Positions 1 through 43,203 of a stretch of 48,254 nucleotides of DNA are shown in pieces. The notes beneath the pieces were generated by a model. The model ran no database searches. It was given only the letters and a program-made list of their open reading frames with translations, and had not been told where the DNA came from. Where the stretch lies: NCBI GenBank assembly GCA_937870865.1, contig CALMZY010000386.1:1-48254 (forward strand). Reading direction: 5' to 3'. Made by a program: the position numbers and the translations under genes. Source of the stretch: an uncultured Lentisphaerota bacterium. Its GTDB lineage: Bacteria > Verrucomicrobiota > Kiritimatiellia > CAIQIC01 > JAGNIJ01. Within the stretch, counting starts at the first letter, position 1; each line of letters starts with the position of its first letter.

Positions 1-502
1 CCATCACGCCCATGAAAAGGTTTCCGTGCACTGCCTTGAGGCGGGAAACGCGGTGTCCCTGCTGGTGGACGGCAAGCCCATCGGGGTCATGGGGCTCCTG
101 AAGAGCGAGATTCGCAGGGAGTGGCGGATGGTCGGACCCGTCGCCGTCCTGGAAGTCCAGTTGGCGCCGATCCTGGCTCATGTTTTTGCGGGAAGGTTGT
201 TTGCGCCGATGGCGGCGTATCCCTCCATTTCGCGGGATGCCGCTTTCGTGGTGGACCAGGGGGTCCGGCACGCCGACGTCCTGAAAATTGTCGGAAAAGT
301 CGCGCCAAAAGATTTGGAAAAGGTCGAGCTATTTGATATATTCGCCGGTGAGGGGATAAGCGCAGGAAAGAAAAGTATGGCTTACTCCTTCACGTATCGA
401 TCTTTGGAGCGTACATTGACTGACGAGGATGCCAATCGGTATCACGAGGCGGTCAAGAACGCCTTGAAGAAAGAGTTGGGAGTGGAAGTTCGGGAAGGCT
501 GA
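1..502 (+). CDS. pheT: Phenylalanine--tRNA ligase beta subunit, C-terminal fragment (5' end upstream of window)
   Basis: The frame is open to the window edge. The tail ...SRDAAFVVDQGVRHADVLKIV...FDIFAGEGISAGKKSMAYSFTYRSLERTLTDEDANRYHEAV matches the C-terminal FDX-ACB-type domain of PheT as I know it. Confidence 0.8.
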   Translation, partial: HHAHEKVSVHCLEAGNAVSLLVDGKPIGVMGLLKSEIRREWRMVGPVAVLEVQLAPILAHVFAGRLFAPMAAYPSISRDAAFVVDQGVRHADVLKIVGKVAPKDLEKVELFDIFAGEGISAGKKSMAYSFTYRSLERTLTDEDANRYHEAVKNALKKELGVEVREG

Positions 503-799
503 AAAAAGAATAAGGCAGCGGTTGAACCCCATGATTCTGTCATGGTTTGAAAATCTGATCCTATTGATCGCCGGTGTCCTGGGATGTCCGGCGCTTGAAA
601 CCTTGGGCGCGTTTTCCTTCAAGCCGGTCCGTGTGGCGGCTGAAGAAACGTTGATTGTTCGTACATCGCGGGGCGTCAGGGGGGCGATGACGATTCCGGC
701 AAGACGACCGTCAAGGGTGTCGGCCGGACAATAGGCAGATCGTGTTCTTTGCCATTCGGGGTTCCGATTTTTCCCGACCCCTTCGAGGGTCGGGACGAA

Positions 800-1000
800 G
801 AAAAATACCCTGCCTTGTTCGTGACTGGGCCAATATCTCTGACCCAACATTAAGTTGAACAGGGAGCTCGGCGTTCGGATGAATACTTCGTATCTCCTCT
901 TTAACCGGGGGAGAAGCAAGGTTCGTCCGGCAGAGCACCCACCTTGGTAATCAAGGTACAGAGATAGTGCCCTAACGACTCGTGGTGGGGTATTTTTTTT
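800..1000 (+). ncRNA. Candidate structured small RNA (rod-like, 6S-RNA-like fold) ending in a T8 tract
   Basis: There is no credible ORF in the 516-nt pheT-rarA gap. Nested co-linear pairings: 806-814:984-992 (TACCCTGCC/GGTGGGGTA, two G.U), 819-822:975-978 (TCGT/ACGA), 827-830:969-972 (GGGC/GCCC), 834-841:959-966 (TATCTCTG/CAGAGATA). Local hairpins lie inside, and T8 follows at 993-1000. Confidence 0.3.
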
Positions 1001-1018
1001 GCGCTCGCGGAGCCCTGT

Positions 1019-2371
1019 ATGGACCTGTTCGAGCAAGACGAGATCAGTGCCGGCGACGTCGCGAAGCAGCCGCTCGCGGCGCGGATGCGCCCCCGGACCC
1101 TGGAAGAAATCGTGGGTCAGGATCAGATTCTCGGCCCCGGCAAGCTTCTCCGGCGCGCGATCGAGGCGGACCGCCTCGGCAGCGTCATCCTGTACGGACC
1201 CCCCGGCTGCGGAAAGACCACGCTCGCGGAAGTCATTGCGCGGGCGACCCGCCGCCGCTTCGAGCGAACGAGCGGCGTGTTGGCCAACGTCGCGATCCTG
1301 CGGACGCATCTCGAGTCCGCCAAGAACCGCCGCAAGACCAGCGGCGCGGAGACAATCCTGTTCATCGACGAAATCCACCGGTTCAACAAGGCGCAGCAGG
1401 ACGTCCTTCTGCCGTACGTCGAGGATGGTTCCATCACGCTGATCGGCGCGACAACGCACAACCCGTTCTTCTTCATCAACAGTCCGCTGACCTCGCGCTC
1501 GCAGATTTTCCAGTTGGAGCCCCTGAAGGAGGCTTCGGTCCTCGTCCTTCTCCGGCGCGCGCTCGAGCGCGACGAGAGCCTGAAGGCGATGGCGATTCAG
1601 GCGGATGACGACGCGCTGGAGCACCTGGCGAAGGTGTGCGAAGGCGACGGCCGCCGCGCGCTCGGCGCGCTGGAGATCGCCGCGCTCACGACCGCGCGCG
1701 CCGACGACGGCATCGTCCATATCACGCGCGCCGCCGCCGAGGAGTCCATCCAGAAGAAGGCCGTGGTGTACGATCACGACGAGGACGGGCATTACGACAC
1801 CATCTCGGCGTTCATCAAGAGCGTGCGCGGTTCGGATCCGAATGCCGCGCTGTACTGGCTGGCCAAGATGCTCTACGCCGGCGAGGATCCGCGGTTCGTC
1901 GCGCGCCGGCTGGTGATCCTGGCCTCCGAGGACATCGGCAACGCGGATCCGCGCGGCCTCACGCTCGCGACCTCCGCGATGGAAGCGGTGGAGTTCGTCG
2001 GAATGCCGGAGGCGCGCATCATTCTCGCCCAGGCGACGACCTACCTGGCGACCGCGCCGAAGAGCAACGCGTCGTACACGGGGATCGAGGCCGCGACCGA
2101 CGACATTAAGAACGGCCGGACGCTTCCCGTACCGCGTCCGCTCCGCAGCACGGGCTCCAAGCGCGCCGCGAAGGAATTCGGCCACAAGGGCTACCAGTAC
2201 GCTCACGACTTCGAGGGTCATTTCGTGGACCAGGAGTACGTGCCGACGTCGAAGAAGTACTACCAGCCGACCGCTCAGGGCTACGAGGACACGATCCGGA
2301 AGAGAATCGAGCACTGGGACGGGCTGCGGAAGAAGTCGAAAGCCGCTCAGGAAGAAACGGAGGGGAAATGA
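1019..2371 (+). CDS. rarA: Replication-associated recombination protein A (AAA+ ATPase, MgsA/RarA family)
   Basis: 450 aa starting at an ATG. Walker A is ILYGPPGCGKTTLAEVIA and Walker B is ILFIDEIHRFNKAQQD. The C-terminal MgsA-type region reads ...FGHKGYQYAHDFEGHF. Confidence 0.95.
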   Translation: MDLFEQDEISAGDVAKQPLAARMRPRTLEEIVGQDQILGPGKLLRRAIEADRLGSVILYGPPGCGKTTLAEVIARATRRRFERTSGVLANVAILRTHLESAKNRRKTSGAETILFIDEIHRFNKAQQDVLLPYVEDGSITLIGATTHNPFFFINSPLTSRSQIFQLEPLKEASVLVLLRRALERDESLKAMAIQADDDALEHLAKVCEGDGRRALGALEIAALTTARADDGIVHITRAAAEESIQKKAVVYDHDEDGHYDTISAFIKSVRGSDPNAALYWLAKMLYAGEDPRFVARRLVILASEDIGNADPRGLTLATSAMEAVEFVGMPEARIILAQATTYLATAPKSNASYTGIEAATDDIKNGRTLPVPRPLRSTGSKRAAKEFGHKGYQYAHDFEGHFVDQEYVPTSKKYYQPTAQGYEDTIRKRIEHWDGLRKKSKAAQEETEGK

Positions 2372-2955
2372 CCCTGCCGGCCGGCAACAAAGGAGCGATC
2401 CGCGAACGAATCCGGTCCTTGCGACGCGGGTTCGACATGGCGTGGGTCGAACAGGCCAGCCCGTTGATCCTGGAAAAAGTCGTGGCGCTTCCCCAGTTCA
2501 GCGCGGCGCGCGTGGTGAGCTGCTACATGGCGCTTCCCCACGAGGTGCAGACGGAGGAGTTGATCGAGATGTGCTGGCAGCTCGGCAAGCGCGTTTGCGT
2601 TCCCGCCCTGCTGAAGGGAAGCCATGAGTACGAGCTGTCCTGGCTGGAGCCGGGCGATGCCACCGTGCAGGGGCCGGTGAAGATTCCGCAACCGCGGGAT
2701 ATCCGCCGCGTCCAGCCCAAGGATGTGAACCTGATGATCGTGCCCGCCATGGCGTTCGACCGCCGAGGGAACCGCCTCGGGCATGGCTGCGGGCACTACG
2801 ACCGGCTCATGGCCAAGTGTCCCGGCTACAAGGTCGGGCTGGTTTTCGAGGTGCAGATGGTGGACGAGGTGCCGGTGGAGGCGCTTGACGTCGCCGTCGA
2901 CATCGTTGTGACCGAGCAGAACATATACCCTCCCGCGAGCGTTCGCGGGGGGTGA
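2368..2955 (+). CDS. ygfA: 5-formyltetrahydrofolate cyclo-ligase
   Basis: 195 aa. Family signature ...LMIVPAMAFDRRGNRLGHGCGHYDR.... The start overlaps the rarA stop (ATGA). Confidence 0.85.
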   Translation: MTLPAGNKGAIRERIRSLRRGFDMAWVEQASPLILEKVVALPQFSAARVVSCYMALPHEVQTEELIEMCWQLGKRVCVPALLKGSHEYELSWLEPGDATVQGPVKIPQPRDIRRVQPKDVNLMIVPAMAFDRRGNRLGHGCGHYDRLMAKCPGYKVGLVFEVQMVDEVPVEALDVAVDIVVTEQNIYPPASVRGG

Positions 2956-3018
2956 AATTGAAACAGTACAAGACGCGCGGACGGGGTTTCAGAGCGCCCG
3001 GTCCGGCGGGAGGTGAAC

Positions 3019-4575
<1,557 letters not shown>

Positions 4576-23938: not shown

Positions 23939-23942
23939 ACAC

Positions 23943-23962
23943 CACCACAATATATTGTGGTG
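23943..23962. repeat. Perfect 20-bp palindrome CACCACAATATATTGTGGTG
   Basis: Checked base by base. It lies 5 nt after the stop of the rlmI remnant. Confidence 0.8.
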
Positions 23963-24081
23963 ACACTGTCAGGCTTAATGCTGTATATAGATTTCAAGGG
24001 ACCGGTGCCTAATTTTCTGTTGATCGGTCACACGATGTTCCTTAGTTTTTTGTTAAATCTCGAGCAGAGGTGTGTTGCCGC

Positions 24082-24282: not shown

Positions 24283-24507
24283 ACCCTCTATTCCTTATCC
24301 CAAGGAAGAACTACCGCGGAGACACAGAGAACAGACGGACTTTATCGCAAAAACCGTTTCCCTTTTTGCGCCTTTCGCGTATTTCGTAGTTTCCTCTTCC
24401 GCAGGCTCGTTTTCGGCCTACTTTCAACTCGCCTTGCATCTCTTCCCCCGGTAGCCTGATGTGTATAAGCCGTTGCGATGCTTCGATCAGTACATCAGGG
24501 GGAGGTT

Positions 24508-25131: not shown

Positions 25132-25145
25132 CAGGAGTGGCGCTT

Positions 25146-27599
25146 GTGAAAAACCTTACTGTCCGCATGGTTCTTCCGGTTTTGTTCGCGCTTGCGGCCG
25201 CATTCCTGCCGGGCGGGTGCGCGACGACGGACGAGGCCTACTTTCTGAACACCGAGTCCGAGGCCAACGTGTTCGTCGCGCCGGTGCCGTGCCCGATCTG
25301 GAAAGTGGCGGTCATGCCGTTCAAGGGGCCCACGGACCTGATCGGTTCGTCCGTGTCCGACATGTTCGTCACGGAAATGCTGCGCGCGGGCCGCTATGAA
25401 CTGGTCGAACGCAGCCAGATGTCCAAGGTCCTCAGCGAGTCCGAGCTCTCGCTGGCCGGCCTGTCCCTGTCCAAGGCGACGGAGGTGGGCAGCATGCTCG
25501 GCGCGGACGGCGTGATCATCGGAACGGTGGACGAATACAGCACGGTGGCCTACCGCGGCGCGGCGTTTCCCGTGGTCGGGATCACCGTCCGGCTGATCGA
25601 CTGCAAGAGCGGCAAGGTGATGTGGAGCGTGGACCTCGCCAAGCGGGCGGACAGCAAGAGCGCCACGCTTTCGGAACACGCACGCGATGTCGTTCATGAA
25701 ATGACCGCGGGGCTCTACAAGAAGTGGGGTGTCCAGCGGAAGGTTCCGCGGCCCGTCGAGACGGCCTCGTCGGCCCGCGAGGAATCCCCGGACGCCGTCG
25801 TCGGAATGACCGCGGAACCCGAGCAACCCCCGAAACCGCCGTGCGGCCTGAAACTTTCCGACATGGGCCTGCGCGAAGTCACGATCACGTGGACCGCTCC
25901 GTCCGACAACGCCAGCCAGTTCAAGATCGAGCGAGCGGACAAGGCCGACGGGCCCTTCACGCTTCTGGGCAAGACCTCGGCGGGCCGCGGGGAATACGTG
26001 GACGACGAGGGCCTGGAGGACAGCACCGTCTATTACTACCGCGTGACCGCGGTCTCCGCGAGCGGGCTGCAAAGCGCGCCGTCGGACGTGGTCGAAAGCA
26101 TGACCGCGCCGCCGCCGGAGCCGCCGGCGGACATCCAGGCCGTGCCGGACGGTTCGAGGGCCGTCAAGGTGACGTGGGGCGCGCCGCCGTCGGAAGGCGT
26201 GACCCGGTACATCGTCGAACGCAACGATCCCGACGCGCCGGACCGCTTTATTAAGAGGGGCGAGGTGAAAGGTCTCGTTTTCCGCGAGGGCGGGACGGCG
26301 CAGTCCGATCTGCGGGACGAAACGAAGTACCTCTACCGCGTCACGTCGGTCAACCGCGTCGGGTCCGTCGGCCAGCCGTCGCCGCCGGTCGAGGTCGTCA
26401 CCGAGCCGCCGCCCGCGCCGGTCGCGGACCTGCAGGCCGTCAGCAGCGAGGTGCGATGCGTGCCCCTTTCGTGGAGCCCGAATCCGGAACCGGATATCGT
26501 CCGCTACGACATCTACCGGAAGGACAACGAGGAGACGCCCACCGCCAAAATCGCCTCCGTCAAGGCGCGCGAGACGAAGTACCTCGACGGCGGGCGCGAT
26601 CCGGGCAACCTGGAGGACGATCACACTTACCAGTACGCCATTGTTGCGGTCGACGCCGTGACCGCCGAGAGCAAGAGCTGCTCCCCCGTGTCGGCGACCA
26701 CGCGCAAACCGCCGCCGGTGGTCGAAGGCGTTGCCGCCACGTTCGGGCGGCCGCGGGAGGTGCCCCTGGCGTGGACGGTTTCGCCCGACGAAAAAGTGAC
26801 CGGCTATGACGTCCTTCGCGCCGCGCCCGACGGCGGGGACTTCGCCGTGATTGCGACGGTGAACGGCCGCGAGACCGCCGGATATGTCGACAAGGGCGGC
26901 GCGAAACCGGCGGCCCTTGGCCGGCTTCTCGACGGCACGGAGTACCGGTACCGGCTGGTCGCGTTCAACACCGCGCGCGCCGTGTCCGAGCCCTCCGAAA
27001 TTGTTTCCGCCACGACGAAGTTTGCGCCGGTCGCGCCGATCGAACTGGGCGCGACGACCAACCGGCCCAAGTCGGTGGAGATTTCGTGGAGCCCGAACGC
27101 CGAGATGGACATCAAGGAATACGTGGTCGAATCGGCAGCCGCCGGCACGGCCCGTTTCCGGGAGATCGCGCGCGTGCCTGCGCCGGAAGACGGACAGCCT
27201 TCCGCGACGGAATCGAAACTGCCGGATGGCGCGGGCCGCCTCTACCGCGTCAAGGCGATCGACACGGACACGCTCGAAAGCCCGTGGACGGAGCCGGTTG
27301 AAGGCGCGACCAAGCCTCTTCCTCTCCCGCCGACGGACTTGAAAGCGGAGTTGAACGAGGGCGGCGCCCTGCTGACGTGGACCCCGCCGGATCAGCCGGA
27401 TATCCAGGAGTACAGGATCTGGAAGAAGGGGTTTGTCATGGCCGATCTCTTCACGACGACCGAAGCGTCGGAGTACACATTGTCGTCAGCGGACATTGGA
27501 AAGAAACTGGTGGTCATGGTCAGCGCGGTGGACCAGGACGGCCTGGAAAGCGGGCGCACGGCGCCCGTGGAAATCCGGCCGCCTGCCCCGGAAAAATAA
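25146..27599 (+). CDS. Lipoprotein with an N-terminal CsgG/HfaB/LpoB-like module and six FN3-like repeats (locus gene 2)
   Basis: Lipobox LPGGC. KVAVMPFKGPTDLIGSSVSDMFVTEMLRAGRYELVERSQMSKVLSESELSLAGL...VGSMLGADGVIIGTV fits the CsgG-family signature as I recall it. Six ~95-aa units follow, with W/Y..Y.Y.V.A patterns (e.g. VTITWTAPSDNASQFKIERAD...STVYYYRVTAVSASG). I prefer start GTG 25146, 8 nt after AGGAG; the track uses 25137. Confidence 0.75.
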   Translation: MKNLTVRMVLPVLFALAAAFLPGGCATTDEAYFLNTESEANVFVAPVPCPIWKVAVMPFKGPTDLIGSSVSDMFVTEMLRAGRYELVERSQMSKVLSESELSLAGLSLSKATEVGSMLGADGVIIGTVDEYSTVAYRGAAFPVVGITVRLIDCKSGKVMWSVDLAKRADSKSATLSEHARDVVHEMTAGLYKKWGVQRKVPRPVETASSAREESPDAVVGMTAEPEQPPKPPCGLKLSDMGLREVTITWTAPSDNASQFKIERADKADGPFTLLGKTSAGRGEYVDDEGLEDSTVYYYRVTAVSASGLQSAPSDVVESMTAPPPEPPADIQAVPDGSRAVKVTWGAPPSEGVTRYIVERNDPDAPDRFIKRGEVKGLVFREGGTAQSDLRDETKYLYRVTSVNRVGSVGQPSPPVEVVTEPPPAPVADLQAVSSEVRCVPLSWSPNPEPDIVRYDIYRKDNEETPTAKIASVKARETKYLDGGRDPGNLEDDHTYQYAIVAVDAVTAESKSCSPVSATTRKPPPVVEGVAATFGRPREVPLAWTVSPDEKVTGYDVLRAAPDGGDFAVIATVNGRETAGYVDKGGAKPAALGRLLDGTEYRYRLVAFNTARAVSEPSEIVSATTKFAPVAPIELGATTNRPKSVEISWSPNAEMDIKEYVVESAAAGTARFREIARVPAPEDGQPSATESKLPDGAGRLYRVKAIDTDTLESPWTEPVEGATKPLPLPPTDLKAELNEGGALLTWTPPDQPDIQEYRIWKKGFVMADLFTTTEASEYTLSSADIGKKLVVMVSAVDQDGLESGRTAPVEIRPPAPEK

Positions 27600-28244: not shown

Positions 28245-31200
28245 ATGAAGCACATTTCTTCAAAGGGAACGGTGTGTTGCCGGGTGGGGTGGGCCGGACT
28301 GCTGATCGTCCTGCTCGGTGTCCTGTCCGCCGCGGGCGAGTGGAGCCAGGCCGTCAAGGACGCCGCCGCGCGGGTGGCCGCCGGGAACGCGTCGCCCGCG
28401 GACCTTCAAACCGTCTTCGAGTACAACCAGTCGATCAATCGAATGGGCGCGCGCGGCACGCAGAACGGCGGCATCAACAACCAGGCGTACCAAGGCAGCC
28501 AGAAAGCATTCACGGCGAAGAATAACTCCATCATCCAGGATTCCGCTACGGAGTGCGGGCTCGACGTGGAGATCAAGGAGCCGAAGAGCGATCCCCTGGC
28601 GGGCACGGACACCGACGTCAACGTGAAGACGAAGGACGGCAAGCCCCTGACTCACGAGCAGTGGAAGAGGCTGAACGACACATACAACCGCAAGGTCAAC
28701 GAGTACCTGAAGAAGCCGCCCGGCAGCAAGGTCAACACGGGCACCGACCTGATGCCCGACCCGAAGACCACGAACCCGCAGGAGTTCCAGAAGATCTGCA
28801 ACGACATCAACAACCAGGGCGGCACGACGTACAAGGATCCCGCCGCCGCGCGGGTCGAGGGGGCGATGGCCAAGGGCGAGCCGATCGTCATCAACGAAGT
28901 CGGCAGCTACGTCAAGGAATTGCAGGGCCAGGCGCAGTCGCATTTCGACGCAGCGGCGAAGACCACCGCCGAGGCGAACAACCTGGCCAAGGTCTACGGC
29001 GAAAACAGCCCGCAGGTGCAGGATTTGCGCGCGAAGGCCCAGATCGAAAATTCGCAGGGCGCGAAGTACATCGAGAAGATCGAGAACGTCGGCGCGAAGA
29101 TTCGCGGCGAGGCGGGCGTGGCGGCCGCGCCGGGAACGGAGTCGCCGTCCGGCAAGCTGACCGAGACGTTGAAGAACAATCGCGGCGCCGACACCATCGC
29201 GCAATCGGAGCAGATCGGCCCGCTGTCCAAGAACGCTCTTAACAACGCCACGCAGAGCACGATTGAGGACCTGGCGAGGGTGGCGAACGCGAACCCCAAG
29301 GCCGCACCGGCCTGCCAGCAGGCCATTGCCGACAGCCTGCGCGACCTGCCGATGAGCCAGAAGGGCCAGGCGATGGAGATGATCAAGACGAAGTACGGCA
29401 ATGATTTCGCGAAAGGCGTGGCGAAGGCCGCGCAGGGCCCAACGGGCGGCGCGACCGTCATGAAGGGATTTGAGAAGGTCATGAAAGTCCTCGGCCCCGG
29501 CCTGATGATTTACGACGGATATCATCGAATCACCGGCGCCTTGAACGCGCCGGACGAGGCGAAGACGTATGTCGCCGGCAAGGCCATCGGCGGTTTCGTC
29601 GGTGGCCTGGGGCTGGGCGCGGCGGTGGGGCTGGGCGTGGCGGGAATTCTGGGCGCGCCCGTGACGGCGGTCGGCGCGGCCGTGGTCATCGGTACAGGGA
29701 TCATCGCCGGCGGCCTCGGCTACGGGGTCGGCGATTACGCCGGCAGTTCGCTTGCCGGCTGGATGCTCGAGGGCGTGCGGCCGCGCGACCAGAGCGAGTA
29801 CGATGCGCTGGCGGCCAAGGGCCTGCTGGACGGCAGCAAGGACATCTACGGCCAACTCATCGCCGCCGGCGTGGATCCGGCCACCGCCGCCGCCGCCGCG
29901 GCCGCGTACAAGAACGGCGACGTGAAGACCTTCCGCGACATCCTCGCGAGCGTCCGCGACAAGCTGGTCAAGGGCGCGAAGAAGATGCCGCCGCGCCGGT
30001 TCAACGAACTGGCGACCAATGAAGTCGAGGTGCTGCTCGACTGTCTGTGCTCGAAGTCGCTGGGCGCCAATCCGTGGGTTGCGCAGGGCTATAACACGGA
30101 GATCCCCAAGGACGCCGATCCGAAGGCCCATTCCTGCGGGAGCCTGGCCAATGGTCCGTGCATGGCGTCGGGCTTCGTCTGCTGGCGCAGTTTCATCAAG
30201 TGGGGGAATCCGGGCATCTCGGATTGCCTCGCGTCGTTCAACCTTCCGACCAACTCCGGCTACGTGCGCGGGGAGATCGATGCGAAGTACCAGAAGCCCT
30301 ACGAGAAGCCCTTCAAGATCAAGGTGATCGCGGACCCGGTCGAGTTTTGCCCGAATGACAAGATCAACGTGAAGATCGTTTGCGAGGGCGGTCGCGGCGA
30401 CTACGAATACCGCTACTACGCCGGCTGGCCCCTGCAGCGTCCCGCGGATGGTCCGAAGGATGCGTGGACGTCCACGCGGTCGTCCAGCATGACGTTCACC
30501 GCGCCGGATCTCAGGCGCGGCTACTTCGACGGACAGTGGGTCTACACGCGGCCGGCCGAATACTATCCGACGTACGTCCAGGTGTGGGCCAGGAGCACCA
30601 CGTTCGATCAGGTCAGCGGCCAGGAGGTGCCGACGGAAATCTGCCAGTCCGTCGGCCTTCGCATGCGTTCGCATGCCGAATGCGAGAAGCTCCATCCGCC
30701 TCCGCCGCCGGAGACCAAGAAGAAGCCGCCGACGAAACCGGTGACCGTTTCGAAACCGACAACGGGGACGAAGACCTCCGCGCCGGAGAGCACGGGAACC
30801 GCTCCGCCGCCGACCACGCCCGGCAAGTATGTTCCTCCGGCGACCACGACACCCGGGGGAAAGAAGACAACTTCCGGCGGAAAGGGCGGACCCGCGAGCG
30901 GTTCAACTCCGCAGCCGCCCCCGGCGCCGCCTTCGCAACCTCCGCCGGCGGGAGGCTCGGGAGCGGGTGGTTCTCAAGGCCCGCAGGAGCCGGGAAGCTC
31001 TCCGAAGCCGCCGTCCTCGGGTGACTCGGATGCCGGCGGGAGCGCCGGAGATTCAACCGTCGACTGTTCCTTCGGCGGCGGTGCGACGGCCATGGACAAT
31101 GGTCCGTTGAATATGTGGGTTGAGGTGCCATCGAACCAGCGCGTGCGGGTGACGATCAAGGGATCGGATGGCTTCTCGCAGACGCTCGAAGGTGTCGGAC

Positions 31201-32333: not shown

Positions 32334-35300
32334 GTGAAGAGACTTCTTGTGTCTGTGTCTTTCGCGTTGTTCGTTTCTTCGGGTGCGTTCGCGCAGGGCA
32401 ACTTCGGCGACACTCGCATCCCGGAAGACCTTCCTCTCGAGGACTACGGCAAATACTGGGACCAGTACAACCAGGAGATCTCCAAGGCGCAGGCGGAGTA
32501 CAACAAGAGCGTCCAGGACATCAAGAACAGCACGAAGTCGGGCCCCGAACAGCAGGCCAAACTTCAGGAGGCCCAGGGCAAGTACCGCGCGCAGAGCCAG
32601 AAGCTCGCGCGCAACGTCCGTGACCCGATCCATCGCCGCCTGATCCAGGAGGTCAACACGGGCGCGACCGAGGGGGCTGGCGCGGCCAACTCGCAGGTGC
32701 GCCAGACCAGCGGGACCGACGTGAACAGCGACGGCTTTCGCGGGCACGAGGGCGACCTGGACGGCGGCGGCGGAGCCCGGACGGCCGACAAGGTGACGCA
32801 AACCCTCAAGAAGATGAAGATCAACGTGCCCGTGGAGACCTACGGCGGCACGATGGAAGTCAAGGGCGGGATGAACCTGACGATCAACAAGGAGGGCCCG
32901 CTCGGCAAGGTCGGGTCGGCGGCGCACCAGGCGCAGGTCGGCGTCGACGCCCGCAATCCCGAAACCTACGTGTCCGAATCCATGCAGAAGGGCCAGCCCG
33001 GCCGCGATGCGGTTCGCGTGCAGGATCACATCAAGAAGGGGCTGGACGGCAGTCCGGCGAAGGGCGCGCACAAGTGCGTGGCCGAGGGCTACGTCTCGGA
33101 CGCCCAGCTCCAGGAAATCATGAACAGGAACGGGATCACCGGCAAGACTCCGGACCAGTTCCGCGAGCAGCTTCAGAGTGCAAAGGAGGGCAGAGCGGGG
33201 GTATCCGATGCCGAGGCGGGCAAGTTCAACAAGGCCTGCGACGACATTATGAACACCGCCGAGGCCAACACGACCGCCAAGGCGAATGCGGAAATGGCCG
33301 GTGCGCAGAGGGAGCTGGACGGCTTGAAGGGGAAGACCGATCCGGCGTCCAAGGCCCGCGCGCAGGATCTTCGTAACCAGCTCGCCGATTCGCGCGCGAA
33401 GCTGGGCGAGACGAAGGCCGCCAACACCGAAGTGCGATCCGGACAAAGTTCGTACCACGAGAAGATCGGCAGTCGAACTGAAATGAGCGGCGAGCCGCGC
33501 GTGGCGGAGTCCGGCGGGCCTAAAGCGGCTGAAACGGCCGGTCCGAAGACAGCGGAAGCCGGCGGGCCGAAGATGGGCGAGTCCGGCAGTCCCCGCGTGA
33601 CGGAGTCCGGCGGACCCAAAGCGGTTGAGACAGCCGGCCCGAAGACCGTGGAGTCCGGCGGGCCGAAAGTCGGCGAGGCGGGCACCCCGAAAGCGGGCGG
33701 AACGGCTGCGCCGGAGGCTCCGGGACTGGGCGGCAAGGCGCTCAAGGCGGCCGGCGACGGCATGGAAGTCATTGCGGTGATCAACCAGGCCGGAAAGGTT
33801 CACGAGGGAATCAAGGAAGGCGACATCAACAAGGTGGCGGCGGGGATTGCCGGCGAGGATGCCGCGAAAACCGCGCAGGTGCAGGGCGGCAAGGATTACG
33901 CCGATGCCATGGGCCAGCTTCTCGATGCGAAGACTGCCGAGGCGCAGTCGGCCGCCGAGGGCAAGCTGAAGCGCATGGGCGCGACGCCGGACGAAATCCA
34001 GACGTATCACGACAACTATGACAAGGACCCGGCGGCGGCGCGCGCGGTCGTGCAGGCCGTGAAGGATCGCGGCGGAGTCGACACGAAGCCCCAGCAGGGG
34101 TTGGAAGGTGCCGGGCCGGAGGAGAGCAGTTGGAACGCGAAGGATCAGCTCGTGGACGGCGCAAAGCAGGCCGGCAGTTACGCTCACGCCGCCGGCGACA
34201 TGGTCTCGATGGGCGGGCTGAGCCACGTCGAGAATGCCGTGTCCGATGTTTACGACATTACCAAGAACGCCGATGCGGTGGACGATTCGACCAAGGCGGA
34301 ACAGCTCAGCAAGTTGTACACGGACCTGCGCATGCGCGGCGCCACTCCGGACGAGGCCAATCAGGCGCTTCAGGATTACTACAAAAATCCGAAACCGTTC
34401 CGCGATCTGGTCCAGGATCTGCGCGAGCGCGATCCGACCCAGTTCGACGAAGCGATCGGCCGGCACGCGAAGAATCTCGGGAATCGGGACAACGTCGATA
34501 TAAATCCCGACGACACCGCCGCCGACCGCGCGGCGGCATTGGGCAAACACCTGAAGCAGGGGCTGGTCGACGATCCGTCGAAAGCGGTGGGAGGCATCAT
34601 CGGCGACATCACGGGCGATAACCAGGAAACGCAGGGCATCCTCGATGCCGCGGGGAAACGCGACAAGGAAGGCGCCGCGATACGCGGCGGCATCTACAAG
34701 GATCTGATCGACCGGGGCGTCCCCGAATCGGAGGCCCGCGCGGCGGTCAACGACCTCGCTCGCGGCAATCCCGGCACCCTGCGCGGCGTGGTCAAGGACC
34801 TGCAGGCCAAGGACGCGCCCGCCAAAGACAAGCCGGAACCTGAAGCGGAAACGGCGGAGGCGAAGCCGGATGCCGAACCCGCCGCGGCGAAACCGGATAC
34901 GGAGGCCGTGACGGACACGGGCGAGCCGGCTCCGTGGGGCGCGCGCAACGACGACGGTGAGGCGGTCGATGCCGGGGCGTATGAGAACGGGGACCGGATC
35001 ATCAACAAGGACGGCGTCGAGTTTGTGAACCAGGATGGCCAGTGGGTCGAGACCGGCGACAACCGCGGCGCGTATGACGCCGACTCTGACAAGGGCGGTA
35101 TCGAGGCGGTTCCGACGCCTTCGATTCCCGACCTGGGCCTGGACGAGAACGGCAACGCGGCGGATCAGCAGACGGCCGGTGACGAGTCGGTGGCGGACGA
35201 CGAGGCCGGCGATGACGAAACGGCCGAAGAGGACGTGGCTGATGCGGACGAAGACTCCGGCGACGACGAGGCGGAAGACGGGGAGGTCTCGGACGCGGAT

Positions 35301-36367
35301 GGCGACGGCGAGGATGATTCCGAGTCGGATGATCTGGCCGAGGGCGAAGCGGATATGCCGGACATGGAAGAGGACGAAGAAGGGTCCGACGATGAGGGCG
35401 GTGTTCTCGACGGATACGCCGGTGATCGCGAGGAGGATGCGGGCCATCGCGGGAAGACCGGCTTAAACACGATGGGCAAGGTCATGCAGATCGCGAGAGC
35501 CTCCACGGCAGGAGATCAGGAGGTGGCTAACGCCAACCGGACCATCAGTAATGCGGGTGAAGATTTCAACACGACCCGGAATCAAGCTGCGTCCGATGCG
35601 GCCGCCGGCGATCGCGCGGACAGTTGGGGCACGAAAATGGGCGATTCCATTCAGCAGGGCTTGGAACAGGGTCTCGGGCAGGCCGCTACGGCGGTCGGCT
35701 CCGCCGCGGCCGACCAGGTGACCGGGCAGGTTTTCGACGGCGGAAAGAAGGATGAGCCGGAGAGCGGCGGATCGAGCGAGGGCAGTGGCGAGGGAGAAAG
35801 CGGCGGATCCACATCGGGCGCCACTATTTCCGGCGGGGGCGGTTCCGGGGGTGGAGGTGGATCGGGGGGGGGGGGGGGGGGGTGGGGGTGGGGGGGGGGG
35901 GGGGGGGGGGGGCGGTTCCGACGTCTATGCCGCCTCCGTCCGGTGGGGCTGGTGGAATTGGCGTAAGTGGAGAGAGTGGTGGCGGTCTCCCTGAAAGCGG
36001 CGGCGTTGGATCTTCGCCGCTTCCTTCGCCGACGTCCTCGCCGTCGGGTGGAAATGTCAAGCTGGTGTGTATGAAGTGCTCCTACGAGTTCATGCCGCCG
36101 GCCGATGGTTCAACAACGTGCCCGCAGTGCGGCGGCGCCACGATACCGCAGACGATCTGGGATCCGTCGCAGGCGCCCGGTGCCACAGCGACAACAACGC
36201 CGACTCCCGCGCCAACCCCTGCGCCGGCTCCGGCACCCGAGCCTCCGAAAGGCTGGAAATGCCCCGTGTGCGGGAGTTATGACACCGTCTTTTCCAACAC
36301 GCATCCCCTGTATGGAGATGTGTATCACTGCAACGGGTGCGGCGGCGCCGTGCATAATGTCTATTAA
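32334..36367 (+). CDS. Giant exported low-complexity protein 2 (locus gene 5), with the reading frame broken inside the poly-G tract (track ORFs 32334-35966 and 35882-36367)
   Basis: GTG start lies 6 nt after GAGG. Signal peptide MKRLLVSVSFALFVSSGAFA. It has the same C-terminal architecture as protein 1, but only if one G is added to (or two removed from) the tract at 35864-35912. That change would give about 1344 aa. Confidence 0.7.
33490..33700 (+). repeat. In-frame tandem repeat in giant gene 2 (two 32-aa units built from GGPK/AGPK 8-mers)
   Basis: PRVAESGGPKAAETAGPKTAEAGGPKMGESGS is followed by PRVTESGGPKAVETAGPKTVESGGPKVGEAGT. Confidence 0.8.
35864..35912 (+). repeat. Near-homopolymeric G tract (G19-T-G5-T-G23) inside giant gene 2
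   Basis: Counted directly: 35864-35882 are G, 35883 is T, 35884-35888 are G, 35889 is T, 35890-35912 are G. Confidence 0.95.
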
Positions 36368-36511
36368 GCACGGCTAAATCGTAGCCCATTCATTTATAAT
36401 GATTTATGAAGTGAACGCGAGTCCGGGCTCGGGCCGTTGTTATTGGCTGGACAGTTCAGCTTTTCGGAGTAGGAAGGGGTTTGGGGCGTGGCGGTAGCGG
36501 AGGGTTCAGCC

Positions 36512-39500
36512 ATGAAATTTCGGAATCCATTCTATTCGGTCCAAGCGCGGATGATGCTTCTTCTCGTCGCGCTTGCGTGGCCGGGCAACCAGGTTTTTTC
36601 TGCGGAAGAAGAATCCGCGAGATCGGTTGCCGAGTCGCGTGCGGCGCAGGCGCAGGAGCTGAGCAACCTTCGCGAGGAATACGCCGCAAAAGCCCGCCAG
36701 CCGGGCGCCGACCAGGCGAAGCTGTTGTCCGAGTACAAGGCCCGGTACGAAGCCATCCGGCAGAAGTTTCTCGCCGCGGATACGCGCGCGGCTGAAATCC
36801 AGGACATCAAGGATCGTTTCCGGGGCGAGATCGAGAATACCGGAAGCAATCCGAAGGACGTGCGGGCGGACGTTGATCTGGCGGCAAGGAATGAGCAAGC
36901 CGCGAGGACTTTGGCGGAAGAATGGCGCGCGAAGGGCGACGTTGTCGTGGAGACCCCCACGAAGTATGTGAACCAGACGCGCGATGCCACGCTCTGGCGG
37001 CCCGAAACGCCTGAAATCAAGCAGGCCAAGGTGGAGGACCTCGATGCTTTTTCCACCGAAGGGGGACAGGAGGGTACGGGCAACAAGTCCGCCGTTCGCG
37101 ACGAACTCGGCTGGCAGATCGACAACGAAAAGAAGCTCCTGCACGCCCAGAACGACGGCGATCTCAAGACGGGCGCCAAGAGCGTGGACAAAGCCGCCGA
37201 GGCCGCCGGCCGGAAGGCGCAGAATCCCGAATTCTACAGGAAGGCCGAAGTCCTGCGCCAGTACGGCGATGACGTCCAGGCCGGCATCACCGACCTCGCC
37301 GACACTCCCGAAGTCCGCAAGCAGAAGCTCGATGCCTGGAGGGAAGAAGCGCGCATTGAGATGGATAAGTCCCGCGCCGTGGCCGAACGCCGCAGCGCCC
37401 TGCGCGACGATGTCCGGGCGGATTTCCAGAGAGCGCTCGAGAATGCGACGCCCGCCGATCCCGCCAACCGTGACGCCAACTTCCGCGACAGCGCCGCCAT
37501 CGGCGACGAGCGCGTCCGCGTGCGCGAGTCGAATCTCGCCGCCGAACGCATGAACGAGACGCTGCGCGCGGAGAGCGGCGGAAAAACGACGATTGAGGCG
37601 GGCGGCAGAGGTTCGACGGTTCGCGAAGGAACGACGACGCGCATCGGAGAGCCAGCGCCAGATGTGGTCACCACCATCAAGCCGGGGGAGGCAGGTCCGA
37701 TCGCGCGCAACACGACGATCGGCCAGCCGTCGCCGCAGGCGGCGGAAAGCGTGGCGGGGTCCGTTCCGGATTCGTCCGGCGTCGGCGACGTGGTGCCCGT
37801 AGAACCGCCGGGCTCTCTTTCCTCTTCGGCCGGCTCATCCGGCGGACGGCCCAGCCTCGATCAGTTCACGCCGAAGATCGATCCGTCGCAGGTGCAGATG
37901 CCTGGGCGGATCGAGCGAACAACCCGTTACGTTTCGGGCGATCCTGCCTTGGCCGATCTCGCCGAGCCCGGCGTCAAGCACGTGCAGGCCCCTCCGCCGA
38001 ATCCGGAACTGGCGGAGCTTGTCCGGAACATTCCATCACAGCCCTCGAAGCCGGCGGCTCCCGTGGATGTTCAAATGCCGGGTCCCGTTGAGCGGCCGAC
38101 GCGCTACGTCTCGGGCGATCCGGCGCTGGCCGATCTCGCCGAGCCCGGCGTCAAGCACGTGCAGGCCCCTCCGCCGGACGCGGACCTCGCAGCGCTCGCG
38201 CGGGGCGACTACAAGCCGCCTGCCCGGTCAGGAGGCGCGAACGCGGGCGAGCAGACGGTTCTGAGTTCGGGAAGCCAGGGCCCCAATCTTGGCGAAGGCA
38301 CGCCGACCACGGTGAAGGGAACGGAAACGAGGCTCAGTTCCGGCAGCACGGGTCCGAACATGGGCGAAGGTACGCCGACGAAACTTCAGCCTGCTGACAC
38401 GAGACTCAGTGCGGGAAGCAGCGGTGCCAACCTGGGAGAGGGAAGTCAGACCCGGCTCAGCGGTGTGCAGCCGGAAGCGACTACGGCCATCGAGCCCGGC
38501 GGTTCGGGGCCGAGGGTGGCTGAAGGATTAACGACGCGCGCCGGAGGGCCAGCCGCCAACACCGCGATCGAACCGGGCGGCTCAGGCCCGCAAGTGCGTT
38601 CGGGCACGAAGACGGCTCTGGGCGAAGCGTCCGTTTCTTCCGCCGGCGGAGTCAACCGGCCCAGCCTTCAGGATTTCGCGCCGCAGATCGATCCCTCGCA
38701 GGTGCAGATGCCGGGGCGCGCGGAGCCGACAGTGAAATACGTGAAGGGGGATCCCGTTCTCGCGGATTTGGCCGAGCCGGGAGTGAGGCACTTGCAGGGC
38801 GGGCCGGCTCCGGGCGATCCGACACTGGCGGACCTGCTCAAGGGAGGCAGCAAGCCTCGCGGCGGTGGGGCGGGCGCTGCGGCAGACACGGTGATCGGCG
38901 GAGAAGGGTCCGGCGGCGCGCGTGCGGGCGAGGGAACCCCGACGAAAGTCGGGCAGGCGCAGACGACGATCAACCCTGAAGGTCCGGGCGGGCCGAACAG
39001 GGGCGAGGGGAGCACCACCAAGGTTCGCGAAGGCGCCGGGTCGACGGAAGCAGCCGGCCCCAAGGCGGAAGGTCCCAGGATTCGCAAGATTCTAAACGTG
39101 GCGAACGAAGTAGTCGGCGGCATGGCCGTCGCCGGCCAGCTTGGCGAAGCCGGCACGAAACAGGCCGGCGATGTAATTGACGAGAACAGGGATTTCACGG
39201 TGGGCGATGCGGGCGAGGCCCTGGTGGAAGGCGCCGGCATTCCGAGCATGTACCAGATGGGCCGCGACATCTCGGCCGAAGAGCAGATCCGGGTGCAGCA
39301 GGGGCAGCAGGGGCAAGCCGCCGCGCTGGGCCGCACGTACGTGCGGATGGCTGACAAAATGGCCCATGAAATGATCAACGATCCGGTTGACCGTGCCATC
39401 GCCGAGGAGGAAGCGCGCGCGGCGGCGGCCGGCGAGGAGCCCGACTACACGCGCAGCACATACAATGCCGCAACGGACGTCGGCGGCAAGTTCACGGGGC

Positions 39501-42500
39501 TTGGAGCGCTCGCGAACGCGGTCGAGGAAACGACGACGTGGGACGAGCGCGCCGACTACGCGGCCCAGCGCGGCGCGATGGACCAGTTTGTGGACGAGAA
39601 CGTGGGCCGCAGTTCCACCCGCATCCGCAACCTGCAGGGCGAGATCGAACAGCTGAGCCTCACCGGCGACATGAACGATCCCGACACTGCCGCGCAGATC
39701 GAGCAGCGCATCGCGCAGATGGACGCCGAGTACGACAAGCTGAACCGCGTCTCGGGCATGGCCCAGCGCACGCTCGGGCAGGAGTCGGCCCAATCCGTCG
39801 ACCAGCAGATCGCCAGCCTGCCGCGCCGGGATGATTTTACGGGTTACATCGACGAGAACGTCACTGCGCGGGGCGGGAAGATCGATTCGACCCGGCCCGC
39901 GGGCACGGAGCGCGCCACGGCGCCGGGTTCGGACACCGGAGCGCAGGCGGACCTCGATATCGCGCCCGCGGATGAGCAGAGACTGGTGAACTCGACAGCC
40001 TCCGCCGGGCTGACGACGGTCGGATCGCCGCAGCAGGCCGGCGCGCCTTCGCTGACGGACGCGCTTCGCGGCATCGGCGACCGGATCAAGAACGAGGCGG
40101 AGAACCAGGTCATCAAGGAGGTCACGAGCAATCCTCAGCCGTACGTGCGCGGCGCCCTGCAGGGGCTTAACGCGGAGAGCGACGACTCGCGGCGCATCCG
40201 GCAGATGTACAATTCCGCGCCCGAGGGCAGCGACGACCGCAGGCAGTTGAACGGACTCTTCGAACAGCTTCGTGACGCGCGGACACCGGAGCAGCGCGCC
40301 GCGGCCCAGGCGGAAATCGAACGCTGGTCCGACAAGTACCCGCCCCCGGCGACAGCGCCGGCGACGGTGCCCGTCCTGCCGACCAAGGACGATCTCCTGA
40401 CCGATCGCAACCAGAGCGCCGACAGGGTCCGGCAGCACAACGAATATATCAACCAGCTCCAGCAGAACGGCGGCAGCAAAGAGGATATTGAGTCGGCTCA
40501 GTGGATCCGCGACCAGGAGCAGCAGCGTCTGGAGGGGTATGACCGGAGCTTGAGCAGCGGCGAATTCCAGCAACCTGCCGCGCCCGCGGAATCGTCCGCG
40601 CCGCCTTCGCCCGCGACGACTGCGTCCACACTCGCGCCGGCCGGCGCGGCGCCCGAAGAGGTGCCGGCCGAACCGGAGGAGCCGAGGTCGGCGAGCGGCT
40701 ACACCGCGGGCCAGCTGCAGAACGACAACTACAACATGCAGAACCTCGCGGACGATGCGCAGAACCGGATCAACAACCTGCAGCAACAAATGGCCGACAG
40801 CCACAACAGCACTGAACGGCGCGATCTCCAGGAACAGATCGACAAGGAGCGCGCGGAGCTGAACAGCCTCCAGGAGCGCATTGACGGGAACAATGCCGAG
40901 CTGACGGAGATGGGCGCCGAAACGGGAGACGGCGTCAAGCCGCCGCCGTCGCCGTGGACCGAGGAGCAGTTGCAGAACGACAACTGGAATATGCAGAACC
41001 TGGCCGAGGGCACCCAGAACCGGATCGACAACCTCGAGCAGCAACTTGCGGCGAGCCGTGACGGCTCCGAGCGCAGGGATCTTCAGGAGCAGATCGACAA
41101 GGAGCGCGCGGAACTGAACAACCTCCAGGAGCGCATGGATGGGAACGACGCCGCCCTGACCGCGATGGGCGCGGAGCCGGGCACCGGCGAGCAGGTCGAG
41201 ATCGGGCCATGGTCGCAGGAGCAATTGGAGAACGACAACTGGAACATGCAGAACCTTGCGGAGCGCACGCAAGGACGGATCGACGATCTTGAGCAGAGGA
41301 TCAGGGACAGCCGCGACGGTTCCGAGCGCCGGGATCTTCAGGAACAGCTGGATCGAGAGCGGGCAGAACTGGGCGGGCTTCAAGAGAGAATCGACGGGAA
41401 CAACGAGCAGTTGGGCGCGATGGCGGCCGCCGGCGGTGCCGGAGAGGAAGAGCAGGGGGACACCGAGGGGCAGGACGACAGCTCCGAGTCCGCCGCCGAA
41501 TCGGCCGGTTCGTCCGTGTTCGACGGCGCCGGCGCCGACTCTGCCGATGCCACAGATGAAATGTGGACAGAGGACGAGCCTGCCGGCGACGAAGAATCGG
41601 ATGTTGATGACGAGCCGGACGCCGATGGTGAGCAACTGGCCTCCGATGAACCCGAGTACGGCGAGGGCGACGACGGGTACGATTCCGGGGATGTGGATCC
41701 AAACACCGAAGGGGGCATCCAGCAATTTGCCGAAGCCACGGAGAGCCGTCTGGGCGCGGACGGGAGCGCCGAGATGAATATCATCAGGGTATCGTCGGAC
41801 GGGCGCATTGCCGAGACTCGCAGCGATGCCGAGGCAAACAACGCGGACAACATCCGGGATCAGGGCGGCGCGGAAGCCCAGCAGACCGTCAACGAAGCCG
41901 CGACGGAAGTCGCCGCCGGCGATCGCCAGGACAGTTGGGGCAATGTGATTGGGAATTCCGCGCAGACGGGCTTTGAACAAGGCGGCCAGGCGCTCGGTAC
42001 TGCGCTGGGAGGGTCCGGCGCGGATCATGTATCGGGCCAGGCCTTCGGGTCGAAACCGTCTTCCGGTTCGGATTCCGGCAGTGGTGAAGGCAATGAAAAC
42101 GGCGACGACGCGGGCCAGGGCGATGCCGTCGCAACGGGTTCGTCTCCCGCCGTCCCGCCGCCCGCGCCCCCTCCGGTCAGCATGCCCCCGCCGTCTTCTC
42201 CTTCGCCGGCGCCGGCCGCGCCTTCGACGCCTTCGTCCGGCTACGGTAATTGTCCCAGATGCAATATTCCTTTTATCCAGTGTTCGGATGGCGCCTGGCG
42301 ATGTCCGAATTCGGCATGGGTGAGGCAGAATCCCGGCGGGGCACGGCCACCCGCAGCGCCCGCTCCCGCTCCGACGCCGGTGGTGGTGCCGAGTCCGACC
42401 TATGGGCCGCTGTTGCAGCAGACGCAACCGAACCTGACGCCTGTCCAACTGAACGCGGCTGGCGAGCCGATGTTCGCGCCGGGGCAGAATTTCGGGAACA

Positions 42501-42535
42501 CGTACCCGGTTCCCTACGGAGGTCCCACCCGGTAA
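36512..42535 (+). CDS. Giant exported low-complexity protein 3 (2007 aa from ATG 36512; locus gene 6)
   Basis: GGAGGG RBS. Signal peptide MKFRNPFYSVQARMMLLLVALAWPGNQVFSA. Several internal repeat families and an acidic tract precede the conserved DSWG-type module (41930-42050), a Pro-rich linker and a CxxC...C...C motif (42247-42310). Confidence 0.8.
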   Translation: MKFRNPFYSVQARMMLLLVALAWPGNQVFSAEEESARSVAESRAAQAQELSNLREEYAAKARQPGADQAKLLSEYKARYEAIRQKFLAADTRAAEIQDIKDRFRGEIENTGSNPKDVRADVDLAARNEQAARTLAEEWRAKGDVVVETPTKYVNQTRDATLWRPETPEIKQAKVEDLDAFSTEGGQEGTGNKSAVRDELGWQIDNEKKLLHAQNDGDLKTGAKSVDKAAEAAGRKAQNPEFYRKAEVLRQYGDDVQAGITDLADTPEVRKQKLDAWREEARIEMDKSRAVAERRSALRDDVRADFQRALENATPADPANRDANFRDSAAIGDERVRVRESNLAAERMNETLRAESGGKTTIEAGGRGSTVREGTTTRIGEPAPDVVTTIKPGEAGPIARNTTIGQPSPQAAESVAGSVPDSSGVGDVVPVEPPGSLSSSAGSSGGRPSLDQFTPKIDPSQVQMPGRIERTTRYVSGDPALADLAEPGVKHVQAPPPNPELAELVRNIPSQPSKPAAPVDVQMPGPVERPTRYVSGDPALADLAEPGVKHVQAPPPDADLAALARGDYKPPARSGGANAGEQTVLSSGSQGPNLGEGTPTTVKGTETRLSSGSTGPNMGEGTPTKLQPADTRLSAGSSGANLGEGSQTRLSGVQPEATTAIEPGGSGPRVAEGLTTRAGGPAANTAIEPGGSGPQVRSGTKTALGEASVSSAGGVNRPSLQDFAPQIDPSQVQMPGRAEPTVKYVKGDPVLADLAEPGVRHLQGGPAPGDPTLADLLKGGSKPRGGGAGAAADTVIGGEGSGGARAGEGTPTKVGQAQTTINPEGPGGPNRGEGSTTKVREGAGSTEAAGPKAEGPRIRKILNVANEVVGGMAVAGQLGEAGTKQAGDVIDENRDFTVGDAGEALVEGAGIPSMYQMGRDISAEEQIRVQQGQQGQAAALGRTYVRMADKMAHEMINDPVDRAIAEEEARAAAAGEEPDYTRSTYNAATDVGGKFTGLGALANAVEETTTWDERADYAAQRGAMDQFVDENVGRSSTRIRNLQGEIEQLSLTGDMNDPDTAAQIEQRIAQMDAEYDKLNRVSGMAQRTLGQESAQSVDQQIASLPRRDDFTGYIDENVTARGGKIDSTRPAGTERATAPGSDTGAQADLDIAPADEQRLVNSTASAGLTTVGSPQQAGAPSLTDALRGIGDRIKNEAENQVIKEVTSNPQPYVRGALQGLNAESDDSRRIRQMYNSAPEGSDDRRQLNGLFEQLRDARTPEQRAAAQAEIERWSDKYPPPATAPATVPVLPTKDDLLTDRNQSADRVRQHNEYINQLQQNGGSKEDIESAQWIRDQEQQRLEGYDRSLSSGEFQQPAAPAESSAPPSPATTASTLAPAGAAPEEVPAEPEEPRSASGYTAGQLQNDNYNMQNLADDAQNRINNLQQQMADSHNSTERRDLQEQIDKERAELNSLQERIDGNNAELTEMGAETGDGVKPPPSPWTEEQLQNDNWNMQNLAEGTQNRIDNLEQQLAASRDGSERRDLQEQIDKERAELNNLQERMDGNDAALTAMGAEPGTGEQVEIGPWSQEQLENDNWNMQNLAERTQGRIDDLEQRIRDSRDGSERRDLQEQLDRERAELGGLQERIDGNNEQLGAMAAAGGAGEEEQGDTEGQDDSSESAAESAGSSVFDGAGADSADATDEMWTEDEPAGDEESDVDDEPDADGEQLASDEPEYGEGDDGYDSGDVDPNTEGGIQQFAEATESRLGADGSAEMNIIRVSSDGRIAETRSDAEANNADNIRDQGGAEAQQTVNEAATEVAAGDRQDSWGNVIGNSAQTGFEQGGQALGTALGGSGADHVSGQAFGSKPSSGSDSGSGEGNENGDDAGQGDAVATGSSPAVPPPAPPPVSMPPPSSPSPAPAAPSTPSSGYGNCPRCNIPFIQCSDGAWRCPNSAWVRQNPGGARPPAAPAPAPTPVVVPSPTYGPLLQQTQPNLTPVQLNAAGEPMFAPGQNFGNTYPVPYGGPTR
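37895..38176 (+). repeat. 177-nt-period direct repeat in giant gene 3, including a 49-nt perfect copy
   Basis: ggccgatctcgccgagcccggcgtcaagcacgtgcaggcccctccgccg occurs at 37951-37999 and again at 38128-38176. The units encode QMPG..ER.TRYVSGDPALADLAEPGVKHVQAPPP. A diverged third unit lies near 38690-38800. Confidence 0.9.
40712..41440 (+). repeat. About 2.9 tandem copies of a 255-nt (85-aa) unit in giant gene 3
   Basis: Unit starts are at 40712, 40967 and 41222. Consensus: QLQNDNWNMQNLA..TQNRIDNLEQQ...SRDGSERRDLQEQIDKERAELN.LQERIDGN...L..MGAE. Confidence 0.9.
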
Positions 42536-42618: not shown

Positions 42619-43203
42619 ATGCGCGTATCATTGCGGACACTGGGTTCGATCATTGTCATTTCCATCCTGGCCGGTTGTGCATCAACCGACGAGAAGTACT
42701 TCCTCGAAACCGACTCCGACGCCAATGTGTACGTGGCGCCCTCCGGCTGTCGCAGCATTTCCAAGATCGCGATCATGCCGTTCAAGGGGCCGACGGAGTT
42801 GATCGGTCAGTCGGTGTCCGACATGTTCGTGACCGAGATCCTCCGGTCCCAGTACTACGAGCTGGTTGAGCGCAGCCAGATGGCCAACGTGCTGAACGAG
42901 TCCGAACTGGCGCTGTCGGGCCTTTCCGCGACCAAGGCCGCGGAAGTGGGCGGAATGATGGGCGCGGATGGCGTGATGATCGGCACGGTTTCGGAGTACG
43001 AAACCGTCGCGCACCGCGGGAAGCCCATCCCGGTGGTCGGCATTTCGGCCCGGCTGATCGACTGCAAATCCGGCAAGATCATATGGAGCGTGGATCTGGC
43101 AAAGCGGGCGTCGTCGGGCGGCATGACGCTGTCGGAACACGGCCGCGACGTGGTCCATGAAATGATGGCGGGCCTGTACAGGAAACTGCGAAGCGCGAGG
43201 TAA
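42619..43203 (+). CDS. CsgG/HfaB/LpoB-like lipoprotein, stand-alone paralogue of the N-terminal module of locus gene 2 (locus gene 7)
   Basis: ATG 42619 follows GGAGGG. Lipobox ILAGC. By hand alignment, 123 of 169 positions are identical to residues following the lipobox of the 25146 gene. The upstream part of the track ORF (42250-42618) overlaps the end of giant gene 3. Confidence 0.8.
   Translation: MRVSLRTLGSIIVISILAGCASTDEKYFLETDSDANVYVAPSGCRSISKIAIMPFKGPTELIGQSVSDMFVTEILRSQYYELVERSQMANVLNESELALSGLSATKAAEVGGMMGADGVMIGTVSEYETVAHRGKPIPVVGISARLIDCKSGKIIWSVDLAKRASSGGMTLSEHGRDVVHEMMAGLYRKLRSAR

Follow-up and report, generated by a model that had tools for sequence, protein, structure and literature searches.

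The 49-nt G-rich tract that splits gene 2 in the analysed stretch of DNA (48,254 nt at its full length, referred to as the window) is most likely not a real feature. Comparison with other assemblies of the same species makes it highly probable that the tract is a technical artefact of one contig and not a property of the organism. The organism's true site is most likely a 17-nt mixed-codon glycine linker, with gene 2 as one unbroken gene encoding about 1333 aa.

Direct reading of the window letters showed that the tract occupies positions 35864-35912 and contains 47 G and 2 T, arranged as G19 (35864-35882), T (35883), G5 (35884-35888), T (35889), and G23 (35890-35912). As the initial annotation had claimed, it splits gene 2 at the Gly linker. 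The upstream frame (32334..35966, + strand) is a 1210-aa ORF as it stands, and comprises a signal peptide, GGPK repeats, an acidic region, a conserved DSWG...QQGLEQG module, and the Gly/Ser linker. It reads ...SGGGGGGWGWGGGGGGG RFRRLCRLRPVGLVELA, and then terminates with TAA at 35964. The stop was correctly placed earlier; 17 codons plus the stop follow the tract, and positions 35913-35963 are read out of frame. The downstream frame (35882..36367, + strand) is a 161-aa ORF encoding ...AVPTSMPPPSGG...NVKLVCMKCSYEF...CPQCGG...WKCPVCGS...HCNGCGG. Translation confirmed that this offset ORF carries the Pro-rich linker and the double Cys4 tail, that is, two CxxC...CxxC zinc ribbons. The true coding sequence in this frame begins at about 35912 (AVPTSM...). 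A Pfam search of the downstream ORF yielded zinc-ribbon matches, all of them sub-threshold. Exact-protein look-ups found no database record for the 1210-aa ORF, the 161-aa ORF, or the paralogue P1.

The tract stands apart from the composition of its surroundings. At the 33.5% G content of the window, the expected number of 49-mers with at least 47 G is about 1e-15, and about 3e-5 G runs of 19 or longer are expected by chance. A whole-window scan found no G or C run longer than 6 elsewhere in the 48,254 nt, and no homopolymer longer than 9 besides the tract. In about 100 kb of related loci, there were no G/C runs longer than 8 and no 49-mers with more than 32 G. Among the Gly codons of the genes, GGG accounts for only 17% and GGC for 57%. 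Several long simple-repeat tracts in surface genes were looked for in the window and in the fetched related loci, and no such set was found.

Small neighbouring proteins, looked up by exact match, placed the species in many assemblies from wastewater and sewage. A protein search with the gene 2 tail returned an 87-aa fragment as the sole hit; the conspecific contigs were found via the neighbouring genes and not via this search. Four of them spanned the site, namely L015 (ERZ28614988, SAMEA7426311), L016 (ERZ28614311, SAMEA7428243), L022/L158 (ERZ28616201, SAMEA7428421), and L157 (ERZ28614850, SAMEA7428263). They came from four different sewage-metagenome samples, and all belong to one project and one pipeline. 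Their identity to the window was 99.4-99.96%. The left anchor GGTGGAGGTGGATC (35850..35863, + strand) and the right anchor CGGTTCCGACGTCTATGCC (35913..35931, + strand) were the same in the window and in all four contigs. The anchors enclosed 17 nt, GGGTGGAGGGGGTGGGG, in each of the four, as compared with 49 nt in the window. The excess in the window is 32 nt, which equals 2 modulo 3, and the frameshift is therefore explained. The comparison of orthologous loci that the initial annotation had proposed thus gave a 17-nt in-frame linker in four of four conspecifics and the tract in none. We judged the tract (35864..35912, + strand), which stands in place of this allele, to be a probable technical insertion.

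The conspecific gene was a single 1333-aa ORF in all four contigs, reading ...SGGGGGAVPTSM... / ...SGGGGGSGGGGGAVPTSMPPP.... In-silico repair of the window sequence gave 1343 aa when two G were deleted and 1344 aa when one G was added (stop excluded). The earlier prediction that either change restores about 1344 aa was sound as arithmetic and right in the kind of product; the true discrepancy is 32 nt, not +1 or −2, and the size found in the conspecifics is 1333 aa. Linker aside, the 1333-aa product differed from the repaired window protein by 2-3 substitutions. Both halves of gene 2 are open, with at least 99% protein identity to the intact conspecific product. The tract disrupts an otherwise conserved ORF without any other sign of gene decay. 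Its T-G5-T core, moreover, does not match the true T-GGAGGGGG-T.

The variation around the site was small. Pairs of the four conspecifics had as many as 10 SNPs between them in the 2.5 kb left of the site, with an identical linker. Between L016 and the window, 2 SNPs were counted over 2514 nt leftward and none over 2300 nt rightward. Over about 14 kb, the tract was the sole indel between L015 and the window. None of the four independent assemblies of the same sequence reproduced the tract. The possibility that a real poly-G had collapsed in the four other assemblies was ruled out by the A of the 17-nt allele, the intact frame, and the identity across samples. The assembly error that had been offered as an alternative is supported by the four conspecifics and by a relative of about 88% identity, all of which are intact with a short mixed-codon linker at the site. 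The error is not, however, a simple homopolymer miscount, given the 32 extra nucleotides and the mismatching core.

The known slippage of long homopolymers, and the frequent role of surface-protein genes as contingency loci, favour a genuine tract. It would represent a recent private expansion of the G-rich linker into a hypermutable double poly-G tract (G19 and G23) in this strain, which we regard as unlikely. About equally improbable is its functional consequence: either the tract inactivates the zinc-ribbon tail, leaving a pseudogene or an OFF state, or slipped-strand mispairing switches the tail on and off, with transcriptional slippage along the G19 and G23 runs perhaps providing a rescue. 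The collinear exact flanks speak for a genuine tract, as do its position precisely within the Gly linker, where extra Gly codons would be tolerable, its unique path at ordinary k-mer sizes, and the freedom of the window from other indels relative to L015. Against these points, the tract was absent from the four conspecific samples and from all relatives. The haplotype is nearly identical to that of L016 (2 SNPs in 4.8 kb), so that several unusual events would have to be very recent. The change needed is GGG-T-GGA-GGGGG-T-GGGG to G19-T-GGGGG-T-G23. No fewer than three events are required, namely growth of G3 to G19 (+16 G), deletion of GGA, and growth of G4 to G23 (+19 G). The spacing between the two T residues decreases from 9 to 6 nt, beyond what slippage explains. 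Replication slippage needs longer runs than the G3 to G5 present at the start, and known bacterial poly-G switches are usually roughly 8-17 nt long, which G19 and G23 exceed. The observed state is also out of frame, and the organism shows no tendency to long G tracts in the window or the related loci.

The four conspecifics, the orthologue in L005, and the distant homologues contained no homopolymer with length differences at the orthologous site. ON and OFF frames did not coexist among strains, the window alone being out of frame. The phase-variation reading failed on each feature tested and is not supported by the comparative sequence data. The phase-variation switch suggested by the initial annotation was thus not upheld: other strains have no homopolymer at the site, length polymorphism was not seen, and the 48-kb window holds no other long homopolymer. 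If the tract were real, which is unlikely, expansion of a G-quadruplex-prone linker would have produced a hypermutable switch or transcriptional-slippage site governing the zinc-ribbon tail of a giant protein secreted by a Kiritimatiellia-like bacterium, with G19 and G23 far longer than the known bacterial contingency tracts.

More distant sequences likewise lacked the tract. Among the matches listed in the GTDB related-locus scan, L005 was the only one confirmed. It is the GTDB MAG contig CAYQYB010000164.1 ('uncultured Verrucomicrobiota bacterium'), with about 88% DNA identity to the window. Its orthologue of gene 2 runs without interruption (ORF 158..4321, up to 1387 aa) and carries the linker tccggcggaagttccggtgggggcggagggagcggcagcggtggtggtggcggcagcggtggcggcagc, which has mixed Gly codons without a homopolymer. 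The 161-aa downstream ORF of the window was 95% identical to the C-terminus of this intact protein. A search of metagenome contigs with a 26-mer common to the window and L005 gave 0 exact matches, and a metagenome scan with the tail motif returned distant loci only, none of which contained a long G run. Searching with the repaired protein yielded 13 homologues from Kiritimatiellia/Verrucomicrobiota-type metagenome bins. In ten of these (P0001-P0010), a single ORF encodes the module, given by 'DSWG..GDS.QQG.EQG...AAD..G.IF' in the homologues, a Gly/Ser linker, and between one and four CxxC zinc ribbons. Ribbons are missing from P0012, which does contain the module, while P0011 and P0013 are without the module.

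These relatives also bear on programmed recoding, in which the ribosome would shift frame, or RNA polymerase slip, on the G run to yield both truncated and full-length products. Long homopolymers can cause transcriptional slippage, and the two frames do hold the two halves of one protein. Programmed sites are, however, conserved in orthologues, and here none has a slippery run. The arrangement in two frames was not found in P0001-P0010, L005, or the four conspecific genes, each of which uses a single frame. We excluded programmed recoding because the arrangement is not conserved, and consider it very improbable.

With the artefact as the preferred reading, the true linker would be TC-GGGTGGAGGGGGTGGGG-CG, read S-G-G-G-G-G-A. 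The intact gene 2 would then encode a signal peptide, repeats, an acidic region, the C-terminal module, the Gly/Ser linker, the Pro-rich linker, and two zinc ribbons, in this order. The 32 extra bases, essentially all G, probably entered at sequencing or assembly, and would have generated a false frameshift and a false split into the 1210-aa and 161-aa ORFs. A k larger than 23 makes the tract a unique path, which implies that it was present in some of the reads and counts against the artefact. In two-colour Illumina chemistry, a cycle without signal is called as G. Candidate routes include over-calling of G or the reading of stalled (dark) cycles without signal as G, loss of phase in GG-rich motifs, and an assembler path through erroneous G-rich k-mers. 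Whereas the absence of the tract and the intact ORFs elsewhere were observed directly, the particular technical mechanism is one that we infer. Two-colour Illumina chemistry has been described to produce excess T>G miscalls (PMC13218037). With a G4Hunter score of 2.24, the true site ranks first among the 25-mers of the 14-kb conspecific loci, and it is also the spot richest in G. Together with its surroundings (G5-N7-G5-N12-G3-N4-G5-N1-G4), it forms the strongest G4-type motif of the locus. Raised error rates at G4 motifs, insertions included, have been reported on the Illumina, HiFi, and ONT platforms (PMC10519405).

Some features of the tract depart from the typical form of an artefact. It does not lie at a contig end or at a chimeric junction, being internal with collinear flanks, and it adds length instead of substituting bases. 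A dark-cycle artefact acting by substitution only was ruled out, the tract being 32 nt longer than the true allele. The window strain also differs slightly from the conspecifics (0.04-0.6% divergence), which leaves a small probability for a private mutation. This, and the single project and pipeline behind all four comparison contigs, are points against the artefact. A literature search on poly-G misassembly found no relevant report.

Runs of G23 or longer were present in at least 120 unrelated contigs of IMG/VR. Among the 120 IMG/VR matches listed, 96 runs were located within 150 nt of the locus end, and 24 were internal. The exact G19-T-G5-T-G13 pattern gave 0 matches in IMG/VR. Eight unrelated IMG/VR viral contigs (L046, L084, L094, L113, L119, L130, L136, and L156) contained internal runs of G24 to G31. 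In L119 (tract at 3828-3881), the sequence is G26-TTGT-G24-CGGTGGTGGTGG... / CGGTGGTGGTGGATCGG, adjoining GGN Gly-codon repeats. In L094, a G31 run (13260-13290) lies inside (GGTGGC)n, a GGN repeat context like that of the window tract. Some internal IMG/VR runs directly abut poly-C and are evident misjoins.

This distribution raises the question of a chimeric join, in which the assembler fused two unrelated contig ends bearing poly-G tails. Most long poly-G runs in metagenome contigs are indeed at contig ends, and the poly-C-abutting internal runs are obvious joins. The window tract, in turn, has flanks that align collinearly over kilobases left and right with all four conspecific contigs, and also with the L005 orthologue, and both sides of the tract belong to one gene. 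This collinearity excludes a junction of unrelated sequences, so the chimeric artefact contemplated in the initial annotation was dropped; its probability is close to negligible.

Gene 2 is the middle member of a group of giant genes. The paralogue P1 (28245..32309, + strand, 1354 aa) contains the C-terminal module, a mixed-codon Gly run, and two zinc ribbons of its own. The Gly run uses GGC GGC GGC GGA GGT GGC GGG GGG, in line with the mixed codons noted earlier. P1 and gene 2 share 46% identity over 119 aa before the linker (E 2e-4). The tail of gene 2 had been described as that found in P1. This is true of the architecture; BLAST found no similarity between the zinc-ribbon tails of the two proteins. 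The paralogue gene 3 (36488..42535, + strand, 2015 aa) has the same C-terminal module, with 46% identity to that of gene 2 over 69 aa (E 3e-10). No significant Pfam, NCBIfam, or PDB sequence match was obtained for the giant proteins. Gene 2 contains tandem 'GGPK(A/T)xE(S/A/T)' repeats at 33498-33691, with periods of 24, 48, and 96 nt. The Pfam Cornifin match of the giant proteins was rejected as a spurious, low-complexity repeat match, which arises because of these tandem GGPK repeats.

The giant genes belong to a cluster kept across related bins, which runs from an ORF of about 210 aa through an 820-aa CsgG/fn3 protein, a 190-aa DUF2059 protein, P1, gene 2, and gene 3 to a 194-aa lipoprotein and ORFs of 276 and 335 aa. 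The conserved upstream neighbour (25137..27599, + strand, 820 aa) carries CsgG and four fn3 domains, and the conserved downstream neighbour is the CsgG/LpoB-like lipoprotein of 194 aa (42619..43203, + strand; coordinates as inferred from the L022 gene call). The cluster (24478-45060) is conserved in Kiritimatiellia/Verrucomicrobiota-type bins and was also seen in L001-L004, L015, L022, and L157. Its two or three giant signal-peptide proteins lie between two CsgG-domain lipoproteins, one of which is fused to four fn3 domains. The C-terminal 'DSWG..QQG.EQG' module is common to the giants and precedes Gly/Pro linkers and Cys4 zinc ribbons, of which there are one to four. The cluster could be an uncharacterised secretion or surface system. 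The window is chromosomal, with housekeeping genes and a 6S/SsrS RNA (804-995, + strand; Rfam RF00013, 66.3 bits against a gathering score of 46.4).

Further differences between strains were recorded in the giant genes. At 36800 (L015 position 12628), a C>T change in L015 replaces an early Gln codon of gene 3 by TAG. Gene 3 is called as 96-aa and 1970-aa ORFs in L015, while it is intact in the window and L016. P1 differs from L016 and L018 at 30896-30915, where changes of +1, +2, and −3 nt fall within 20 nt and cancel out, so that the frame is shifted only locally, in a Pro/Ser-rich low-complexity region. Gene 3 contains repeats at 37913-38176, 38675-38864, and 40712-41347, with 87-nt units (about 90% identical) and a 255-nt tandem in 2.5 copies. 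The discontinuity of L022 at 38675-38864 suggests repeat-number or sequence variation between strains. Upstream of the cluster, the region 22000-24478 has a GC content of 0.52-0.57, as compared with about 0.64 elsewhere, and no ORF of 150 aa or longer. In related contigs, this region holds small ORFs only, including a Laminin_G_3 fragment in L017 and L157.

The main value of these results is in quality control. Annotation pipelines would report a truncated 1210-aa protein and an orphan 161-aa zinc-ribbon ORF at this locus. The case also shows that internal poly-G runs in metagenome assemblies can originate at G-rich (GGN)n glycine linkers, and reading such runs as phase switches first needs read support or a comparison of strains. 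The giant-protein family is uncharacterised and may merit study, an interest that is independent of the tract.

Among known systems, phase-variable poly-G tracts occur in surface genes of Campylobacter jejuni, Neisseria, and Haemophilus. The window tract resembles these contingency loci in being a G homopolymer within sequence that codes for a secreted or surface protein, where a length change alters the frame. It differs in its absence from other strains, in the lack of length polymorphism and of such tracts nearby, in its much greater length, and in its location near the 3' end, where only the tail would be toggled.

Two-colour poly-G artefacts carry over into assemblies, and the remedy is poly-G trimming, e.g., with fastp. 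The window excess shares with them its G-specificity, its restriction to one strand, its absence from independent assemblies, and the occurrence of similar runs in many unrelated metagenome contigs. The classic form is a 3' read tail found at contig ends, whereas the window tract is internal with correct flanks, contains two T, and adds 32 nt. The likeness to errors at G4 and other non-B motifs (Weissensteiner et al. 2023, PMC10519405) lies in the true site being the strongest G4-type motif of the locus. Those errors were reported mostly as one or a few bases per read, in contrast to the 32-nt consensus insertion in the window. The real feature at the site corresponds to the Gly/Ser interdomain linkers, being a short S-G5-A within a longer Gly/Ser linker. 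It lies between the conserved module and the Pro-rich linker with the zinc ribbons, as it does in P1, gene 3, and all homologues. As a linker of this kind, the site is unremarkable, and its length and composition vary freely among the homologues.
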